Below are positions 8,779 through 63,919 of a stretch of DNA of 64,000 bases, piece by piece. The stretch lies in IMG/VR virus record IMGVR_UViG_3300025316_001101. The stretch is one strand, 5' to 3'. This DNA is from a virus (Duplodnaviria; Caudoviricetes). How positions within the stretch are numbered: the stretch's first letter is position 1; each line of letters starts with the position of its first letter. Below the pieces are notes generated by a model. It saw nothing but the letters and a program-made list of their open reading frames with translations, searched no databases and was not told the origin of the DNA. The position numbers and the translations under genes were made by a program.

Positions 8779-9576
8779 CTAAATTTTTCCTAAACGACCA
8801 ATATCAGCCACACATCGATCATGATTGCTTTCCATGATCCCTTTTGCTTTAGGATTAGTCTTCCAAACCTCCATTAGAGTAGCCTCTCCTATATGTCGAA
8901 TCCAACTATTACCAGAAATACCTTGTGTGTATCCACATTTTTTCATACGGGCTGCCAACTCTTCGCTTTCATACCACGCAAACGGATACGCTTTAATAAA
9001 TCCCCCTATGCGTTTGAAAAGTGTTCTAGGACAAAAAGCGCAATACAGTGGTAAAACCCCTTCTCGTAAAATAACATCTTGAGTTGGTTGATTTTTTGAC
9101 CCTTTTAATAATGTATTATAGCCTTCACCTGGATTGTCCGTCCTTGCAGACACCATTGCCACCTTTTGCGGCTGTAGAGCATTAAAAGAATCGATTAACT
9201 GTCCTAACCATAATGGAGTTTCTGGAACCGTATCTGAATGCATAATCACCATCCACGGAGCTTTGGTTTGCAAAAATCCCGCTTCCAGTGCGCCCCCAAA
9301 ACCCAATTGTGATTTATTACGGATACACATAGTTTTTGGAGCTTTGGCGAACCCATTAATAAAATGTGTGTTGGGAGAATGATCATCAATCAAACAGATT
9401 TGATAATTGAATCTTGACCCCAAGCTTCTCCAAATACCTTGACAAAGCTGATATACTCTTTGATATTGCCCATGAAAGGGAATGAGAATGTCTATCGGAT
9501 ATTGAGAATATGCATCCTCTTTAACCATTGGTGTTTGAAAAATTTTTGCGCCACCTGCATCTTCAGATTCTACCAT
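8779..9576 (-). CDS. glycosyltransferase family 2
   Basis: ILIPFH, LIDDHS, HSD (DxD-like). Confidence 0.85.
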   Translation of the reverse strand: MVESEDAGGAKIFQTPMVKEDAYSQYPIDILIPFHGQYQRVYQLCQGIWRSLGSRFNYQICLIDDHSPNTHFINGFAKAPKTMCIRNKSQLGFGGALEAGFLQTKAPWMVIMHSDTVPETPLWLGQLIDSFNALQPQKVAMVSARTDNPGEGYNTLLKGSKNQPTQDVILREGVLPLYCAFCPRTLFKRIGGFIKAYPFAWYESEELAARMKKCGYTQGISGNSWIRHIGEATLMEVWKTNPKAKGIMESNHDRCVADIGRLGKI

Positions 9577-10215: not shown

Positions 10216-11038
10216 ATCTACCTTTATTGATTCTTTGTCTTTTTATTTTATTAAACTGACGAATAGGGTGGCTACAATCTTTCAATGGATGAAAAATAGT
10301 GGCCTCTGGAAAATGTTCTGTCTCTGGATCGATCTCTGGAATCCATCTCATGGGATATTTTCTGTATCTGCCTGCCCAATATGGACCAAGAAACGAATAT
10401 CGTTCATAGTGTGCAAACTCTTCCACCTTACCACCAAAATGATGGGCTAGCGTTGGATATAAATGCTCTACTATATCGTAACCACCCTGTATATCATAAT
10501 CTGGGAAGAATCCGCCCGAAAATGAATTGGTCCAAGTTAAGAATCTATCAAAGAAATTGATTTCTGCAAGCTTTCTAAGAAAATCACCTCGATGGAACAG
10601 GCACGCCCCCAATAGGTATTTACTGCCATCGAACTTAGTTTTCATCATAGCTTCTAATAAAGGAAACTTGATTTTCCCTTCTCGATAATCATTGCCCAAC
10701 ATCCATACGCCTCGTTGAGCGGCACTCTCCAAATCTTCTTTGAACGCCGACGACGTAAAAAGAACATCATATTCGCAAAAACAATACCAATCCATATTGG
10801 GCCATAGTTTCTGAGCATTCATCAAGCCAAACGTAACATTACGATATGGACTCTTTGGTAAATTATGATAAAACCCCTGTAATTTAGCAGCGGGCATTTC
10901 CATATTAGCCGCCCAATCCCAGTGAGCGCCATCCACCATTACCATCACCCTATCGCCCACCCATGTTCTAATAGAATCAAGGGTATCCATGACCACTTCT
11001 GGACCAGTGTGTACGCTTAAAATAGTTGCAATCTTCAT
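10190..11038 (-). CDS. glycosyltransferase-like protein
   Basis: MVDG and EYD motifs, inside glycan island; long ORF 10139-11038 in track. Confidence 0.5.
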
Positions 11039-11071
11039 AGTGTAATAGAGTATAACATACTCAATTACAGT

Positions 11072-12052
11072 ATGAAATATGATATCCTAATGGTAGGTGC
11101 CGGTATTACGACTGCCACCCTTTGCGCCAAACTAAAGCATAAATACAAAATACTTGTAATCGAAACACGTCCATACATAGGAGGTAATTGTGCCGATTCG
11201 AAAATAGGCAATAACTACATCCAATTACACGGATGCCATAATTTCCATACACCTGACGTGTCCATTATAGACTTTCTATCGAAATTTACCACATGGGATG
11301 ATGTCACGTGCTTTAGCGTAACAGGAGAAATAAAACAAAATGGTCAAATCAAAAGAGTGCCGTTTCCATACAGCCAAGAAACAGAAGCGATTACCGGCAC
11401 TCTCAATGAACAAGAAATTATAAACATATTTTTCAAAAGCTATTCACAAAAAATGTGGGGGGCACCATTCGAAATGCTCCCTGAGGTTATACGAAAAAAG
11501 GTTCCAAAGAAAACTGGAGAAAAATCGATATACTTCCCAGGACACATTCGAGTACATCCAACAGATGGATATACAAGAATGATGGAAAAAATGTTCGATG
11601 GCGTAGACATGCTATTAAACGCAGATCCAGATTATTGGAAACACATTCCCGCTGATCATATTTTTTATTCCGGTAGGCCCGATTTGATCGTTGGTGAAAA
11701 ACTGCGATTCCGCAGCGTTAAATTCGAGTGGAGAAACGAAGAATGGGATGCAGATACCATATGCGTCAATTTCTGCCATGATGGCACGCCATATACCAGA
11801 AAAACTAGTTATGGCATGCAATACGGCATAAAATCTAGAATCGTTTCCTATGAAACGCCATACGAAGCCGATGACGAAGTAGATCCGTACTACCCGTATC
11901 CAGAACAAGACTTTGAATCCATAAAGGCCAAAGTGCAGTCCCAATGGCCCAATCTGCGTTTGGTTGGTAGATTAGGCACTATGGAATATATGGATATTTG
12001 GCAGGCAGTATCGGAAACATTGAATATTTCTAAAAATTATCTGCAAAAATGA
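11072..12052 (+). CDS. glf: UDP-galactopyranose mutase
   Basis: VGAG FAD motif, GGNC, HG.H.FH, PYYP, GRLGT.EY.D. Confidence 0.88.
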   Translation: MKYDILMVGAGITTATLCAKLKHKYKILVIETRPYIGGNCADSKIGNNYIQLHGCHNFHTPDVSIIDFLSKFTTWDDVTCFSVTGEIKQNGQIKRVPFPYSQETEAITGTLNEQEIINIFFKSYSQKMWGAPFEMLPEVIRKKVPKKTGEKSIYFPGHIRVHPTDGYTRMMEKMFDGVDMLLNADPDYWKHIPADHIFYSGRPDLIVGEKLRFRSVKFEWRNEEWDADTICVNFCHDGTPYTRKTSYGMQYGIKSRIVSYETPYEADDEVDPYYPYPEQDFESIKAKVQSQWPNLRLVGRLGTMEYMDIWQAVSETLNISKNYLQK

Positions 12053-28505: not shown

Positions 28506-28544
28506 ATAAAAAGCCCACCTTCTGCGCAGCAGAAGGTGGGCTTG
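28506..28544 (-). terminator. terminator after HNH gene
   Basis: AAGCCCACCTTCTGC-GCA-GCAGAAGGTGGGCTT plus T-run on minus strand. Confidence 0.8.
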
Positions 28545-29365: not shown

Positions 29366-29565
29366 ATATTATTTGGTTATATTGTCGCCTTCGATTTTAT
29401 CAATCGAAAGTTTGTATAGTTCTGGAAAGAATCTATGAAGCCACGGATATGGCCCAGCCTTTCCAGCACGGATACAAAACAAACACAGGCAACCACTTTC
29501 ATGTTTTGAATCATTCATAATCATGCTTTTTATTATACTACAAGTCATTCATCTTGTAAAGGTAT

Positions 29566-30580: not shown

Positions 30581-30594
30581 GCATTTATATAGAG

Positions 30595-32163: not shown

Positions 32164-32175
32164 AATTATTTCCAG

Positions 32176-32270
32176 TACGCCCAGTAGGAATTGCACCTAC
32201 GACCCTCGGTTTAGATTATGGGGCTGACTTGCCCCTAAGACCGATGCTCTATCTCCTGAGCTATGGGCGC
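32176..32270 (-). tRNA. tRNA-Arg(TCT)-like with 22-nt hairpin insertion in the anticodon loop
   Basis: Arg-type body; 29-nt loop CT[TAGGGGCAAGTCAGCCCCATAA]TCTAA. Confidence 0.7.
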
Positions 32271-35000: not shown

Positions 35001-35065
35001 GATATGCTCCTATAAATGGTCTACATACATAATAGCATAGTGAAAGTTGATCAACAACAGGAAAG

Positions 35066-39550: not shown

Positions 39551-39627
39551 CAACCGTGGAGGGAGTCGAACCCACATGCGTCCAATTACTCTTTCAACGC
39601 TTTAGGAAAGCGAGGAGATACACGGTC
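39551..39627 (-). ncRNA. rearranged tRNA-like RNA, anticodon CCT (Arg), D-arm displaced
   Basis: acceptor GACCGTG/CACGGTT, T-arm with TTCGACT loop, CGCT-TTCCTAA-AGCG arm nested in TATCTC/GAGTA stem, then ATTGG. Confidence 0.7.
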
Positions 39628-48288: not shown

Positions 48289-48362
48289 TAGGTCACGTGG
48301 GAATCGAACCCACATTTACACTTTTAGAGAGTGTTGCTCTGAGCCAATTGAACTAGTGACCC
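48289..48362 (-). tRNA. amber suppressor tRNA (anticodon CTA)
   Basis: ACACT-CTCTAAA-AGTGT, intact D/T arms, G1.U72, A73. Confidence 0.88.
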
Positions 48363-48928: not shown

Positions 48929-48931
48929 AAG

Positions 48932-49026
48932 TGGGCGGGGCAGGGCTCGAACCTGCGACATTCGGAGCGTAATCAAGCATACACCTGATCCGTTTTCCGA
49001 TGCTCTGCCAACTGAGCTACCCGCCC
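48932..49026 (-). tRNA. tRNA (probably Val, TAC) with 22-nt hairpin insertion in the anticodon loop
   Basis: perfect acceptor, D and T arms; 29-nt loop with GATCAGG-TGTATG-CTTGATT. Confidence 0.65.
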
Positions 49027-56092: not shown

Positions 56093-56096
56093 ATAA

Positions 56097-56171
56097 TCGG
56101 AACGATTGGATTTGAACCAACGACCTTCTTCCCCAACGGAAGACGCTCTAATCTGGCTGAGCTACGTCCCG
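56097..56171 (-). tRNA. Pro-body tRNA with atypical anticodon loop CGTTGGG
   Basis: CGGGACG/CGTTCCG-A; TCTTC-CGTTGGG-GAAGA gives TTG at 34-36 and G33. Confidence 0.6.
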
Positions 56172-56630
56172 AAGTTTTGTCTCTAACTTCGTTACTTGAT
56201 CGTGAATAGCTTGAGACATAAGATATTGAGCATCTAATGCTGCTTCTAATTCTTTTTCCCTTGATACGTCCCTTTGAATTGCTATCCACCCCACAAGATT
56301 GCCATCATCATCTTTTGCTGGATAAATAGAAAGTTGTACCCAATACGTTGATCCGTCTTTTTTATAATTTTCAATGACGCTCGTTACAGATGCGCCAGCT
56401 TTCAAACGATTTTTCATTTCTGTACGTTCAACGTGATCTGTACGGTCTCCCTGTAAAACTCTAGGTGTTTTACCGATCAATTCTTCACGTGTATATCCCG
56501 TTAAACGAGACATCGCATCATTAACAAAAATGATCTCTGGTTCAGTTGGTTCATCCAATCCAGATTTTGTTACTACAACGCCTTCTGCGGCATGCTGAAT
56601 CGCTTGAAATAAAATATCTTTGATGTCCAT
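56148..56630 (-). CDS. stand-alone PAS domain protein (LOV-like, no photoactive Cys)
   Basis: FVN..TGY..E.IGKTPRVLQG..NYKKDGS.YW..WIAIQRDVS. Confidence 0.85.
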   Translation of the reverse strand: MDIKDILFQAIQHAAEGVVVTKSGLDEPTEPEIIFVNDAMSRLTGYTREELIGKTPRVLQGDRTDHVERTEMKNRLKAGASVTSVIENYKKDGSTYWVQLSIYPAKDDDGNLVGWIAIQRDVSREKELEAALDAQYLMSQAIHDQVTKLETKLRDVAQPD

Positions 56631-59388: not shown

Positions 59389-60123
59389 TTACCTTTTTAA
59401 TTTTTGCCAATAACCTCTTGGCGGTTTGTCTATTTTGTATCCACGACACCATTTTTCAATAGACTTATCTGAAACTCCGAACTTGTTTGCAAGCTGTACA
59501 GTTGGTATCTCCCACACCAATTTACACAACTCTTCTCGGCTCGGTCTTTCTACTCTGCGACAGGCAAATTGCGCACATGATTGAGAGCAATATATTTGAT
59601 CTTCACTTTTCGTATTGTATTCTCGACCACATGAAACACATCTCAATGTTAATATCGGTTTAACCAACTGTTGCAGCGCTTCTATTTTGTGTTGTCCAAA
59701 ATGAATTTCCCGATGACACCTACAACACACTAAGATACACTTACTAATTTCGTCAACAATTTTATCCCAACTCCATTGATAAATCATCTTTCCTGGATCT
59801 CCACTTTTTTTGCTACCTGGATCAATATGATGAAAATCCATTGCTGCAAAACATTTGTTATACCCACACATGCAACACTTGCCACCGAAATATTCTACTG
59901 CCCTCTGCTTTTTCCTCCGTCGTGAATTTATTCTAGATATACTAGATTTTGGTTGCTCCCGTCCATCTATCACCGCAAATGGCTTGGTTAAATTCCTAGT
60001 GTTGTGTTGCCCAAATGGCGAGCACTTTAAGCAAAACATTCTACCCTTGAGATTATGTTTTTTGCCATCTAAAACAATCCAATAGGGAATGTACTCACCA
60101 CATTTTTTACAAAGTCTTTTCAT
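59389..60123 (-). CDS. HNH homing endonuclease with C-terminal HTH
   Basis: GGKCCMCGYNKC.AAMDFHH.DP..KCILVC..CH.E.H. Confidence 0.85.
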   Translation of the reverse strand: MKRLCKKCGEYIPYWIVLDGKKHNLKGRMFCLKCSPFGQHNTRNLTKPFAVIDGREQPKSSISRINSRRRKKQRAVEYFGGKCCMCGYNKCFAAMDFHHIDPGSKKSGDPGKMIYQWSWDKIVDEISKCILVCCRCHREIHFGQHKIEALQQLVKPILTLRCVSCGREYNTKSEDQIYCSQSCAQFACRRVERPSREELCKLVWEIPTVQLANKFGVSDKSIEKWCRGYKIDKPPRGYWQKLKR

Positions 60124-60195
60124 AATTAAACCTCCATTACTTATATAGTAATGCGAGGCTTAATTTACGCTACAATTTATAAAAATGCCGAAAAA

Positions 60196-60267
60196 CAGCG
60201 ACGACGAGAATCGAACTCGCCCCTTCAATTAGACAGATTGAAATGCTAACCAATACACCACGCCGCT
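60196..60267 (-). tRNA. tRNA-Asp(GTC)
   Basis: TCAAT-CTGTCTA-ATTGA, G73. Confidence 0.87.
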
Positions 60268-60334
60268 ATTATCGACCCAGGGGACTTGCGTCCCCTGGGT
60301 CGTTCACAGACATAGGGCATACAATATAACCAAA

Positions 60335-60346
60335 TTGTCAAAGATC
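60335..60346 (-). promoter_or_regulatory. boxA-like antitermination element
   Basis: GATCTTTGACAA resembles rrn boxA (TGCTCTTTAACA). Confidence 0.5.
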
Positions 60347-60417
60347 GAGGGGTCTGCGAGGTCTTCCCGCCAAGGTCGAGCAATCGCTTAAACCATAACC
60401 CGATGGTTTTTATTTAG

Positions 60418-60492
60418 TATCCCCGGTTGGACTCGAACCAACGACTTCTGCCTTCGCAGGGCAGCACTCTTATTCCACTGAGCTACGGGGAC
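60418..60492 (-). tRNA. tRNA-Arg(GCG)
   Basis: CTGCC-CTGCGAA-GGCAG, A20-containing D-loop. Confidence 0.9.
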
Positions 60493-60513
60493 AAATATAT
60501 TCAAAACTCCAAT

Positions 60514-60621
60514 AAAAAAGCCTTCCTTAAATTCCTTTTGGGAACTTGAGGAAGGCTTTTTCTTCTCACTCAGGTTCCCTTTTTGGGGGCTCCTGAGTGC
60601 TATTTCTGCGATCTCAGGAGC
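60514..60621 (-). promoter_or_regulatory. attenuator: alternative hairpins plus intrinsic terminator
   Basis: seg1 GCTCCTGAG pairs seg2 CTCAGGAGC; seg2 CACTCAGG pairs seg3 CCTGAGTG; seg3 GGGAACCTGAG pairs terminator arm CTCAAGTTCCC; terminator 60514-60561 with T6. Confidence 0.75.
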
Positions 60622-60727
60622 AAGTGGTATCGACGGTCTCCGGGCGTTCTGGGCGCACGGCGGCGGGTCGTCCGTTTCCGGCGACTGTCGCTACTGCTCG
60701 CTCTATCGTCCTGAACATCGACATCAT
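60614..60727 (-). CDS. 37-aa leader peptide MMSMFRTIERAVATVAGNGRPAAVRPERPETVDTTCS (not in ORF track)
   Basis: SD GGAG, ATG 60727, TGA 60614-60616 within attenuator segment 1. Confidence 0.75.
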   Translation of the reverse strand: MMSMFRTIERAVATVAGNGRPAAVRPERPETVDTTCS

Positions 60728-60808
60728 TTTGCTCCGTTTACCCTTAGACGCACCATGCGGCCAAAAGGTTCACTAAATTTTTAGGCAGAACATCTGCCTC
60801 GTAACAGT

Positions 60809-60837
60809 ATTATACGCTCGCCAATCCAAATTGTAAA
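60809..60837 (-). promoter_or_regulatory. sigma70-like promoter of the tRNA array leader
   Basis: TTTACA-N17-TATAAT. Confidence 0.8.
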
Positions 60838-60857
60838 GGGGCTGAAAAATTTTTTTC

Positions 60858-61259
60858 TTAGCCTAACCTACGGGCAGCCTCAAGAGCCGCCACGCAATTA
60901 GAGCTAATTACAGCAAATAGATCATCTGGATGGTAGCCCGGCGTCCAGACTGTTTTGCCGCTAGAGTGCCAGACTTCGGCTTTTATGTGACATCCTGCGC
61001 ATAGGCTAATGCCATTCTCTGGCACGTAACCGCCATTTATAATTTCGTGCCGATTGATAATGTGGTGTGCGTCTCCAGCCCGCACACCACACATACGACA
61101 ACGATTATTATCTCGTTTGAAAACAGCATTAACAAATTGCTGTCGAACGAGTTTTTTATTTGCTTTTGCCATTGAGTTCACCATTGAGCTTAGACACACG
61201 CTCTTTGAAACGACCGATCTCTCCATTGATCCATTCCAATCGTTTGGCTTCTTCTTCAA
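60858..61259 (-). CDS. HNH endonuclease
   Basis: VFKRD..C..CG..DAHHI..NGISLCAGCH. Confidence 0.8.
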   Translation of the reverse strand: MKKKPNDWNGSMERSVVSKSVCLSSMVNSMAKANKKLVRQQFVNAVFKRDNNRCRMCGVRAGDAHHIINRHEIINGGYVPENGISLCAGCHIKAEVWHSSGKTVWTPGYHPDDLFAVISSNCVAALEAARRLG

Positions 61260-61602: not shown

Positions 61603-62187
61603 TCAAGTATGGGCACAACTAACCTCTCGTTGCAAAAATTCTAGTGCCTGCTCTTTATGCTGCCGTGCCCGTTCACGACTAATGCCTAATTCACTTGCTA
61701 TTTGTTTCAGATTCTTACCTTGTAAAAACCAACCAATCAACGCTTGTTTACTCCTAGCTTTAGCTGGCGGGATTTTATCAAGCAACTCATGCAAATCCAT
61801 ACGAGCCTCTTGTTGTCTTCTATCTCGTTCTGAATCGGAATATCGCAATAGACATTCAATAGATTCATTTGGCATAGCGTATATGTTATGCGATCCTCGT
61901 CTTGTGCGATTTCCTCGTTGCTTTAAGATGTAACCCCTTATGCAATAATATGCATAAGTAGAAAACTGCAACCCACGACTGGGATCAAACCGATCAATGG
62001 CATGATAGAGTCCCTGAACGCCGTCGCTAAACTCTTCTGTTTCTTCCAACGCCTGACCTGGGCGTAGTGACGCATGTTTGATCACTATTTTTGCCACAAG
62101 CCCAAGATGATCGACAGGATTAATTTGCGGATTATGCCTTACTTGGGTTACCACGGAATAGTTCCTTTCTATATTTCTACAACCCAC
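61603..62187 (-). CDS. sigma70-family RNA polymerase sigma factor (regions 2 and 4)
   Basis: GL..AIDRFDPSRGLQFSTYAYY.IRG; IASELGISRERARQ. Confidence 0.88.
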   Translation of the reverse strand: MGCRNIERNYSVVTQVRHNPQINPVDHLGLVAKIVIKHASLRPGQALEETEEFSDGVQGLYHAIDRFDPSRGLQFSTYAYYCIRGYILKQRGNRTRRGSHNIYAMPNESIECLLRYSDSERDRRQQEARMDLHELLDKIPPAKARSKQALIGWFLQGKNLKQIASELGISRERARQHKEQALEFLQREVSCAHT

Positions 62188-63103: not shown

Positions 63104-63238
63104 ACAGCCCTTCTCAAAGTAATGAAATGGGTTTTAGGGGACTGTTTAGTGATGCTTGCGAACCCACAAAACCTCGGTCAATATGGACGTACACCGGAGA
63201 ACCGATCTCCACATCCCTCTTTTCAAATTCATTACAAG

Positions 63239-63311
63239 AGCGGGTGAAGGGATTTGAACCCTCGACATTCACGTTGGGAACGTGACGCTCTGCCAACTGA
63301 GCTACACCCGC
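63239..63311 (-). tRNA. tRNA-Gly(CCC)
   Basis: TCACG-TTCCCAA-CGTGA, U73. Confidence 0.92.
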
Positions 63312-63786: not shown

Positions 63787-63919
63787 AAAAAAGGCCCTTG
63801 GAATTGCTGCCAACGCTGGCAGCTTGCAGAACGGAAGGGCAAGTTACCGTCCTGCGAATAAAAATTCCAAGGGCCAAGAGCCAGCCACTTAATATACTAC
63901 AATCGCCACCATTTGTCAA
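63787..63919 (-). ncRNA. putative sRNA gene: promoter plus three-way-junction RNA ending in a T-run
   Basis: TTGACA-N17-TATATT; GGCCCTTGGAATT/AATTCCAAGGGCC enclosing two hairpins, then T6. Confidence 0.55.

Follow-up and report, generated by a model that had tools for sequence, protein, structure and literature searches.

A short codon-sampling reading frame, mutually exclusive RNA helices, and a terminator precede a phage tRNA array: a probable translation-coupled attenuator

The window analyzed here (64,000 nucleotides [nt]) comprises the last 64 kb, on the reverse strand, of a virus record of 259,024 base pairs from IMG/VR (IMGVR_UViG_3300025316_001101; Duplodnaviria, Caudoviricetes), whose completeness is about 50% according to CheckV. 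On its minus strand, between positions 60837 and 60514, a promoter, a short open reading frame (ORF) and a terminator stand directly in front of a long array of transfer RNA (tRNA) genes; this element is referred to as leader 1. The sigma-70-type promoter (TTTACA-17 nt-TATAAT, 60809 to 60837) agrees with the consensus at 11 of 12 positions. A Shine-Dalgarno sequence, GGAG (60732 to 60735), is located 4 nt from the first ATG and 7 nt from the second ATG of an ORF of 37 codons plus TGA (60614 to 60727). Five segments with alternative pairing partners follow. Segment 1 (GCTCCTGAG, 60613 to 60621) overlaps with the stop codon; its pairing partner is segment 2, whereas segment 2 (CACTCAGGAGC, 60589 to 60599) pairs with segment 1 or segment 3. 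Segment 3 (60562 to 60579) pairs with segment 2 or, forming an antiterminator, with segment 4 (60540 to 60556), which is the 5′ arm of the terminator; segment 5 (60514 to 60535) is made up of the terminator 3′ arm (60535 to 60520) and a T-run (60519 to 60514). The terminator hairpin (60556 to 60520) amounts to about -20 kcal/mol and ends in six T residues at 60519 to 60514. tRNA-Arg(GCG) begins at 60492, 21 nt past the T-run. This gap leaves no room for a promoter, and at least the first tRNAs therefore depend on read-through. An earlier reading of the DNA, made by a model from the letters without database searches (the sequence-only reading), had described a promoter, a 37-codon ORF, alternative hairpins, a terminator and a first tRNA about 20 nt further on, and all of these were found where it had placed them on the minus strand.

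The array behind leader 1 extends from 60492 to 29292 on the minus strand and holds about 29 tRNA genes detected by ARAGORN and Rfam, of which tRNA-Arg(GCG) is the first and tRNA-Met the last. Small ORFs (HTH, PAS and others) are interspersed among the tRNA genes, and no amino acid biosynthesis enzymes are encoded there. No comparably strong terminator was found on the minus strand from 60514 to 28543; the first strong intrinsic terminator past that of leader 1 (28511 to 28543, minus strand) lies 0.75 kb beyond the last tRNA. In cluster B, another tRNA cluster of the contig, a terminator is located right behind the last tRNA.

Codon matches were counted as exact Watson-Crick pairing between a codon and the anticodon of a standard tRNA found by ARAGORN or Rfam. 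By this definition, 27 of the 36 post-start codons of leader 1 are exact cognates of downstream tRNAs, whereas shuffles of matched composition reached 17.6 on average (P = 1.5e-4), and among all 36-codon stretches of the genome that lack a stop, only a fraction of 5e-5 match equally well. The match is thus better than that of random GC-rich ORFs, a trivial explanation that the sequence-only reading had itself considered. Exact matching in the other frames yielded 18/35 and 16/35, and antisense frames yielded 10 to 17. The tRNA species of the array are represented almost completely (19/22). Ala, Pro and Val have three array tRNAs each, and leader 1 uses just the three exactly cognate codons, never a T-ending one (P of about 0.009); in the genome, the T-ending Ala, Pro and Val codons rank first or second commonest of their families. 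Leader 1 samples tRNAs from either end of the array, as in the case of Val-CAC at 30594 (codon GTG) and Ile-UAU at 35065 (codon ATA).

The sequence-only reading had counted 27 of 30 matches for codons 6 to 35, a figure that drops to 25 of 30 under the definition used here. It had included ACA, for which no tRNA-Thr(UGU) was detected in the window, also when the ARAGORN threshold was lowered. It had also included AGG, to be read by a rearranged RNA; a tRNA-like gene with the anticodon loop UUCCUAA does exist, but it reaches only 15.8 bits in Rfam and is not a standard tRNA. In this gene (39552 to 39627, minus strand; anticodon CCU, Arg; scored with the tRNA-Sec model), the acceptor and T arms are normal and the D arm is displaced or abnormal; it would be the sole reader of the AGG codon. 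Gln codons are indeed absent from leader 1; the accompanying statement that there is no standard tRNA-Gln here was mistaken, since tRNA-Gln(UUG) lies within the array at 56096 to 56172. The absence of GGG, together with the position of tRNA-Gly(CCC) (63238 to 63311) upstream of the leader 1 promoter, was borne out.

The same design recurs twice in the contig, outside the window. A 53-nt stretch of the leader 1 5′ region is found again at contig 139.6 kb and its core at 161.0 kb, and each recurrence is followed by a short ORF, hairpins, a strong terminator and then a different tRNA cluster. The short ORFs, leaders 2 and 3, have a ribosome-binding site and lie behind a promoter in the same layout as leader 1. 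Leader 2 (contig 139630 to 139707) has 25 codons, among them AAA (twice), ATT (twice), CAC (twice), CAT, GGT (twice), TGG and AGA, and is followed by Lys-UUU, Ile-GAU, His-GUG, Gly-GCC, Trp-CCA and Arg-UCU; 11 of its 24 codons match, and all 6 tRNA species are represented (joint P = 2.5e-4 against composition-matched shuffles). Leader 3 (contig 161126 to 161161) is only 11 codons long, with AAG, CAA, CGG, AAT, AAT, CAG and AAG matched. Its cluster comprises Lys-CUU (two genes), Gln-CUG, Gln-UUG (two genes), Arg-CCG and Asn-GUU, which gives 7 of 10 codons and 5 of 5 species (P of about 5e-5 in the same type of test). A cross-table of leaders against clusters was diagonal: on clusters A and B, leader 1 scored 0 and 1 of its 36 codons, and leaders 2 and 3 matched foreign clusters of the same genome poorly. 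Searches of contig 183.2 to 183.7 kb, 187.6 to 188.1 kb and 194.85 to 195.7 kb (before tRNA-Gly-CCC) gave no further leaders, nor was a leader found behind the internal promoters at window positions 29560 and 37404.

The arrangement is also present in relatives of this phage. About 10 related IMG/VR contigs were identified by their DnaE-like protein (42 to 54% identity); three of them hold tRNA clusters, each with a leader. In G002 (L097, 8817 to 8945), a leader of 42 codons precedes about 30 tRNAs, with 30 of 41 codons matched and 20 of 22 tRNA species represented; the matches include three Cys codons for its own tRNA-Cys. G001 (L099, minus strand) has a 29-codon leader in front of Pro, Gly, Asn and Glu tRNAs (4/4 species), and G007 (L100, minus strand) has a 37-codon leader in front of about 10 tRNAs (8/9 species). 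Leaders 1 to 3 and those of G002, G001 and G007 are treated below as the six elements. When the six leaders were assigned to the six clusters in all 720 permutations, the true pairing was the best, with a summed z of 18.4; the best derangement, in which no leader is paired with its own cluster, reached 6.8. The post-stop regions of the six elements can be aligned with a mean column identity of 56% and share a T-run followed by ATTGGAG. The elements therefore belong to one family, in which the middles of the ORFs were rewritten while the local tRNA content changed. The T-run and the conserved ATTGGAG together occupy 60507 to 60519 (minus strand) in the window and homologous sites in L005, L097, L099 and L100. 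In the other elements ATTGGAG is the ribosome-binding site of a small ORF between terminator and tRNAs; leader 1 has no such ORF, and tRNA-Arg comes directly.

A cultured phage, Caulobacter phage CcrBL9 (NC_048047.1), was picked up via the similarity of a tRNA-Arg gene and has three leader ORFs in front of tRNA blocks. The first (L102, 3508 to 3627; 39 codons) is annotated as hypothetical protein HOU02_gp552 and represents 12 of 12 tRNA species (joint P = 5e-5). The second (L102, about 11009 to 11107; 32 codons) represents 7 of 7 (joint P = 1.5e-4); here, a clear terminator and an antiterminator inside the ORF stand in front of a block of 7 tRNAs. The third (L101, about 8861 to 8908) has 15 codons, ends in four Arg codons and precedes two tRNA-Arg genes (2/2 species, joint P = 4e-3); no terminator is visible in this unit. 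Together with the six elements, these ORFs make up nine elements. The covariation of leader codons with anticodon sets, which the sequence-only reading had proposed as a test, thus holds for two more leaders in the genome, three in relatives and three in CcrBL9, each of which matches its own cluster.

The helices of leader 1 were calculated at -16.3 (1:2), -14.4 (2:3), -17.1 (3:4, the antiterminator) and -21.8 kcal/mol (4:5, the terminator). The pairing logic of the sequence-only reading was confirmed insofar as segment 1 overlaps the stop codon and the four helices are mutually exclusive, each lying in the range of -14 to -22 kcal/mol. Segment 1 of leader 1 begins 5 nt before the stop codon. 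All hand-delimited elements show the same chain of 1:2, 2:3, 3:4 and 4:5 helices, with the start of segment 1 located between -5 and +5 nt from the stop, and the segments are in essence alternating CCUGAG-like and CUCAGG-like words. Because segment 1 overlaps or abuts the stop codon in every element, a terminating ribosome would favor the terminator, and a stalled ribosome the antiterminator. To assess the chain statistically, the stretch from stop codon to terminator was shuffled in 2,000 trials, and equally strong chains were counted. None of 2,000 shuffles reached the chain of leader 1, G002 or G007, and 9 of 2,000 did so for leader 2 (Fisher's combined P = 9e-9 over the six elements). Furthermore, we folded truncated RNAs, as present before the terminator 3′ arm has been made, masked the ribosome position and calculated the mean pairing probability of the terminator 5′ arm. 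This arm was mostly free when the ribosome occupied the stop codon (0.33 for leader 3, 0.34 for leader 2 and 0.53 for leader 1), while it was sequestered when the ribosome was stalled upstream or absent (0.82, 0.86 and 0.70 to 0.78, respectively).

Anatomy, codon-anticodon match with its covariation over nine elements, and the mutually exclusive helices are observed features, and we consider it highly probable (roughly 80%) that leader 1 is a translation-coupled leader-peptide attenuator that gates the transcription of phage tRNAs. Leader translation, a kinetic switch and the nature of the signal are inferred from these features, and the proposed mechanism is as follows. Transcription would start at the promoter or promoters, and a ribosome would translate the 37-codon leader, which consists mostly of codons read by the downstream tRNAs. 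If decoding is fast, the ribosome would arrive at the stop codon and cover segment 1, so that segments 2 and 3 pair and the terminator (4:5) forms; RNA polymerase would then stop 21 nt short of the first tRNA. Slow decoding at any one of the sampled codons would instead stall the ribosome upstream; segments 1 and 2 would then pair, and segment 3 would capture the 5′ arm of the terminator, resulting in read-through into the array. The net effect would be an on-demand supply with negative feedback: tRNAs would be made when the pool of charged cognate tRNAs, of host and phage together, is limiting, and production would be turned off when it is sufficient. The physiological signal could be either the loss of host tRNAs to defense (anticodon) nucleases or a simple autoregulation of the phage tRNA supply.

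Several observations weigh against this interpretation. The first ATG of leader 1 sits only 4 nt past GGAG. Nine of its 36 codons (TCG, TTC, AGG, ACA, AAC, GAT, ACT, TGC and TCC) are unmatched; GAT and ACT are read by G:U wobble only, and AAC has no cognate tRNA in the array. Conversely, Gln-UUG, Gly-GCC and a 96-nt "Leu-UAG" gene of the array are without a codon in leader 1. Instead of the codon runs seen in classical leaders, each codon is present just once, twice or three times. Counted by codons, the match of G001 is weak (8/28, z = 1.7). The automated search for helix chains failed for leader 3 and G001 owing to a trimming heuristic, and the helices there stem from a manual choice of segments. 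The contrast in the truncated folds was moderate for leader 1 and absent at equilibrium for G002 and G001. In minimum-free-energy (MFE) calculations, the full-length RNA at equilibrium always folded the terminator, whichever ribosome position was masked. The switch must therefore be kinetic, and thermodynamics alone proves nothing; since full-length MFE folding cannot discriminate between the states, truncated folds and helix energies were used instead. Lastly, the array itself contains promoter-like sites (54652, 37404 and 29560), of which the one at 29560 leads into a 50-codon ORF that reaches tRNA-Met with no terminator, and a good sigma-70-type promoter lies directly behind the leader 2 terminator. 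Given these promoters, the attenuators cannot be the sole control; they are probably one layer and govern the 31-kb array only in part.

Four other explanations were weighed against attenuation by codon-specific stalling. The attenuator could be real yet respond to translation capacity in general or to the coupling of transcription and translation (ribosome availability, global elongation rate), so that the codon match would be a by-product of co-adaptation, phage ORFs and phage tRNAs having codon preferences in common. When no ribosome is present, leaders 1 to 3 adopt the antiterminator state in the truncated folds, and any failure of translation would turn the array on, which agrees with such a sensor, as does the low copy number of each codon. 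A sensor of this type would not, however, account for the cluster specificity of the match, since the codons of each leader agree with the cluster behind it but not with the remaining clusters of its genome. Moreover, nearly every tRNA species is represented (62/68 across the six elements), and a comparison with the codon usage of coding sequences in the genome, as the sequence-only reading had suggested, showed that the match exceeds usage (binomial 5e-7, 3e-5 and 8e-3). We therefore regard this explanation as unlikely.

It is somewhat less probable still that the short ORFs are independent small-peptide genes with terminators of their own, and that the tRNAs are transcribed from other promoters or by constitutive leak-through, with no switch involved. 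The peptide middles are not conserved between homologous elements, whereas codon content tracks the local tRNA set. A weak similarity of the peptide ends (ML..L.T at the start, S before the stop) between leader 2 and G002, the annotation of HOU02_gp552 in CcrBL9 as a hypothetical protein and the promoter behind the leader 2 terminator would be in line with plain peptide genes, but these would have no role for a chain of exclusive helices anchored at the stop codon, and leader 1 leaves no room for a promoter before tRNA-Arg.

A structured noncoding RNA (a small RNA [sRNA] or an element for the processing or stability of tRNA precursors) containing a fortuitous ORF is very unlikely. The 318-nt leader 1 RNA does fold far more stably than shuffled sequences (z = -7.8), the leader 1 region is GC-rich in a genome of about 42% GC, and an ORF-less promoter-to-terminator unit is located nearby (63919 to 63787). 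These features would, however, leave the frame specificity of the codon match unexplained: over the six elements, 103 of 175 codons (59%) matched in frame, compared to 67 of 169 (40%) and 62 of 169 (37%) out of frame, and the match is replicated in nine elements with unrelated ORF sequences. In addition, Shine-Dalgarno sites are found upstream of most leader ORFs. At the gathering threshold, Rfam detected nothing except tRNA in the whole window, and a permissive search of 60100 to 61000 revealed no sRNA family. The inverse logic, in which stalling in the leader would uncouple ribosome and polymerase so that Rho or the intrinsic terminator acts and slow decoding lowers tRNA synthesis, is just as improbable. 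In its favor, stalled ribosomes are well known to cause Rho-dependent polarity in general, and the direction of the response proposed here is a prediction from the helices. In all elements, however, the number and order of the helices connect the terminator with a ribosome that has reached the stop codon and the antiterminator with one that has stalled; under the inverse logic, a tRNA shortage would also become self-reinforcing.

The three leaders of this genome share a further feature. A second promoter-like motif, TTAGTGAACCTTTT-N10-TGCGTCTA, is located at 60745 to 60776 (minus strand) and at contig 139578 to 139613 and 161017 to 161050; these three sites, one at each tRNA leader, are its only occurrences in the 259-kb contig. 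The motif is found downstream of the sigma-70-type promoter at leader 1 and upstream of it at leader 3, and this difference in position fits a DNA signal, that is, a promoter, rather than an RNA element. We take its GAAC ... CGTC pattern to resemble promoters of extracytoplasmic function (ECF) sigma factors, which makes the motif a candidate ECF-sigma-type promoter. The exact pattern of the shared 5′ motif was not found in IMG/VR. A phage sigma-factor gene (61603 to 62187, minus strand) lies 0.8 kb upstream of the leader 1 promoter. Its product contains regions 2 and 4 only (Sigma70_r2, 2e-8; Sigma70_r4, 5e-9), an ECF-like architecture, and may be the reader of the motif. No relatives of this protein or of the 493-aa (amino acid) neighbor of cluster A were found in IMG/VR.

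A broader and decidedly more tentative hypothesis is that large phages possess a modular, multiplexed homeostat of tRNA supply. Each tRNA block would have its own sensor acting as an OR gate, which would probe one codon after another for the cell's remaining ability to read what the block provides, and depletion of any host tRNA would switch on the exact replacement set. The three sensors of this genome would share an ECF-type promoter and the phage sigma factor and thus form a small tRNA regulon. Host tRNAs might become limiting by cleavage or depletion through anticodon nucleases, host shut-off or late-gene demand.

The closest comparison is with the multivalent leader-peptide attenuators of enterobacterial amino acid operons (ilvGMEDA with Ile, Leu and Val codons; thrL with Thr and Ile; trpL, hisL, pheL and leuL). 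The phage element shares with them a promoter, a short ORF with regulatory codons, an intrinsic terminator and exclusive helices set by the position of the ribosome, and fast decoding leads to termination and stalling to read-through, as we propose for the phage side. Unlike these systems, it is phage-borne and targets tRNA genes, not biosynthetic enzymes; leader 1 is for this reason not a classical leader-peptide attenuator. Classical leaders contain runs of codons for one to three amino acids, whereas the phage element samples up to about 20 codons, once or a few times each. They also have four segments, whereas the phage element has five, and owing to the extra segment an untranslated phage leader is predicted to read through and not to terminate. 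A permissive search of 60100 to 61000 with the Rfam leader families (Thr_leader RF00506, Phe_leader RF01859 and others) gave only 16 to 18 bits versus thresholds of 55, and these sub-threshold matches were mostly on the wrong strand.

T-box riboswitches resemble the element in that they, too, attenuate transcription according to the state of a specific tRNA pool, with an output that bears on the translation apparatus. Uncharged tRNA is bound directly by T-boxes, which recognize it with a specifier codon and the T-box sequence, work independently of translation, respond to one tRNA each and control aminoacyl-tRNA synthetase and amino acid genes, whereas the phage element would sense through the ribosome. 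The T-box family (RF00230) had no match in 60100 to 61000 even at E values of up to 10. In mycobacteria, short ORFs with cysteine codons respond to the cleavage of tRNA-Cys by the VapC4 toxin (Barth et al. 2021, cited in PMC10264068), and polycysteine leaderless short-ORF attenuators have been described (bioRxiv 10.1101/834739). In these systems, the loss of a tRNA species is likewise reported to lead to ribosome stalling and altered downstream expression; one amino acid or tRNA is sensed, cell stress and cysteine genes are controlled, and the ORFs are not known to sample many codons or to control tRNA genes. A biological rationale for the phage system is provided by work on phage tRNA arrays as countermeasures to anticodon nucleases or host tRNA depletion, in which phage tRNAs replace host tRNAs depleted or cleaved in infection (van den Berg et al. 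2023, eLife, PMC10264068); that study concerns tRNA sequences, and regulatory leaders, promoters or terminators did not turn up in a search of its text. We found no published description of leader-peptide control of tRNA genes in a literature search that could not reach most subscription journals. This genome contributes three paralogous cassettes with disjoint codon sets, orthologues that track their own tRNA sets and, possibly, a dedicated sigma-factor promoter.

The purpose of tRNA genes in phages has been under discussion for about fifty years; codon compensation, replacement of degraded host tRNAs and escape from anticodon nucleases are the main functions proposed. To our knowledge, the regulation of these genes has hardly been addressed so far. 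If the attenuator model is correct, the phage gauges decoding capacity and provides tRNAs as they are needed, and the debated functions become directly testable. The textbook attenuation of trp and his would be extended to a new class of target genes and to an OR-gate design with many codons. Annotators would gain a rule for locating such small ORFs, and the element would constitute a compact natural sensor of codon-specific translation speed. Since CcrBL9 is cultured and has the same design, the idea is open to bench testing now.

With regard to its distribution, leader 1 was essentially unchanged in contigs from four lake or freshwater DNA runs. One lake-metagenome contig showed a T>G exchange (plus strand) at position 60695 at low depth, which converts leader codon 11 from GCA to GCC; the change is at the third codon position and synonymous, and a phage tRNA exists for each of the two codons. 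It offers no usable natural variation. A blastn search of the leader 1 locus against 50,697 phage records returned the tRNA-Arg gene as the sole match. Near-identical DNA was found in freshwater and lake metagenomes from several studies, and the source is therefore a very large uncultured freshwater phage. The 259-kb record codes for a DnaE-type polymerase, PrkA, an NAD-dependent ligase, a transfer-messenger RNA (tmRNA) and about 50 tRNA genes.

Directly upstream of the leader 1 promoter lies an HNH endonuclease gene (60858 to 61259, minus strand). The nearby unit without a convincing ORF (63787 to 63919, minus strand; contig 195107 to 195238) is a candidate small RNA unit with a strong TTGACA-17-TATATT promoter, a structured RNA of about 100 nt and a strong terminator, positioned upstream of an HNH-like ORF and tRNA-Gly(CCC). 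Three tRNA genes of 94 to 96 nt (window 48931 to 49026 and 32175 to 32270, both on the minus strand, and contig 139350 to 139443, plus strand) carry an insert of 21 to 22 nt in or beside the anticodon loop. ARAGORN assigned them to Val-UAC, to Arg-UCU (or Leu-UAG without an intron) and to Lys-CUU or a Met-like tRNA, and G002 has a similar insert-bearing tRNA gene at about 8484 to 8580 of L097. We know of no route of bacterial splicing that fits mini-inserts of this type. Two amber-suppressor-type tRNAs with the anticodon CUA are encoded at window 48289 to 48362 (minus strand) and contig 183724 to 183798 (plus strand). Stop-codon recoding was considered on account of these genes; the ORF statistics of the contig do not require it and are consistent with the standard genetic code. 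At contig 188112 to 188336 (plus strand), back-to-back tRNA-like cloverleafs with two-base or undecodable anticodon loops flank a doubtful tRNA-Val(AAC). The phage tmRNA gene (contig 84822 to 85173, plus strand) encodes the tag peptide ANTFAVAA according to ARAGORN.

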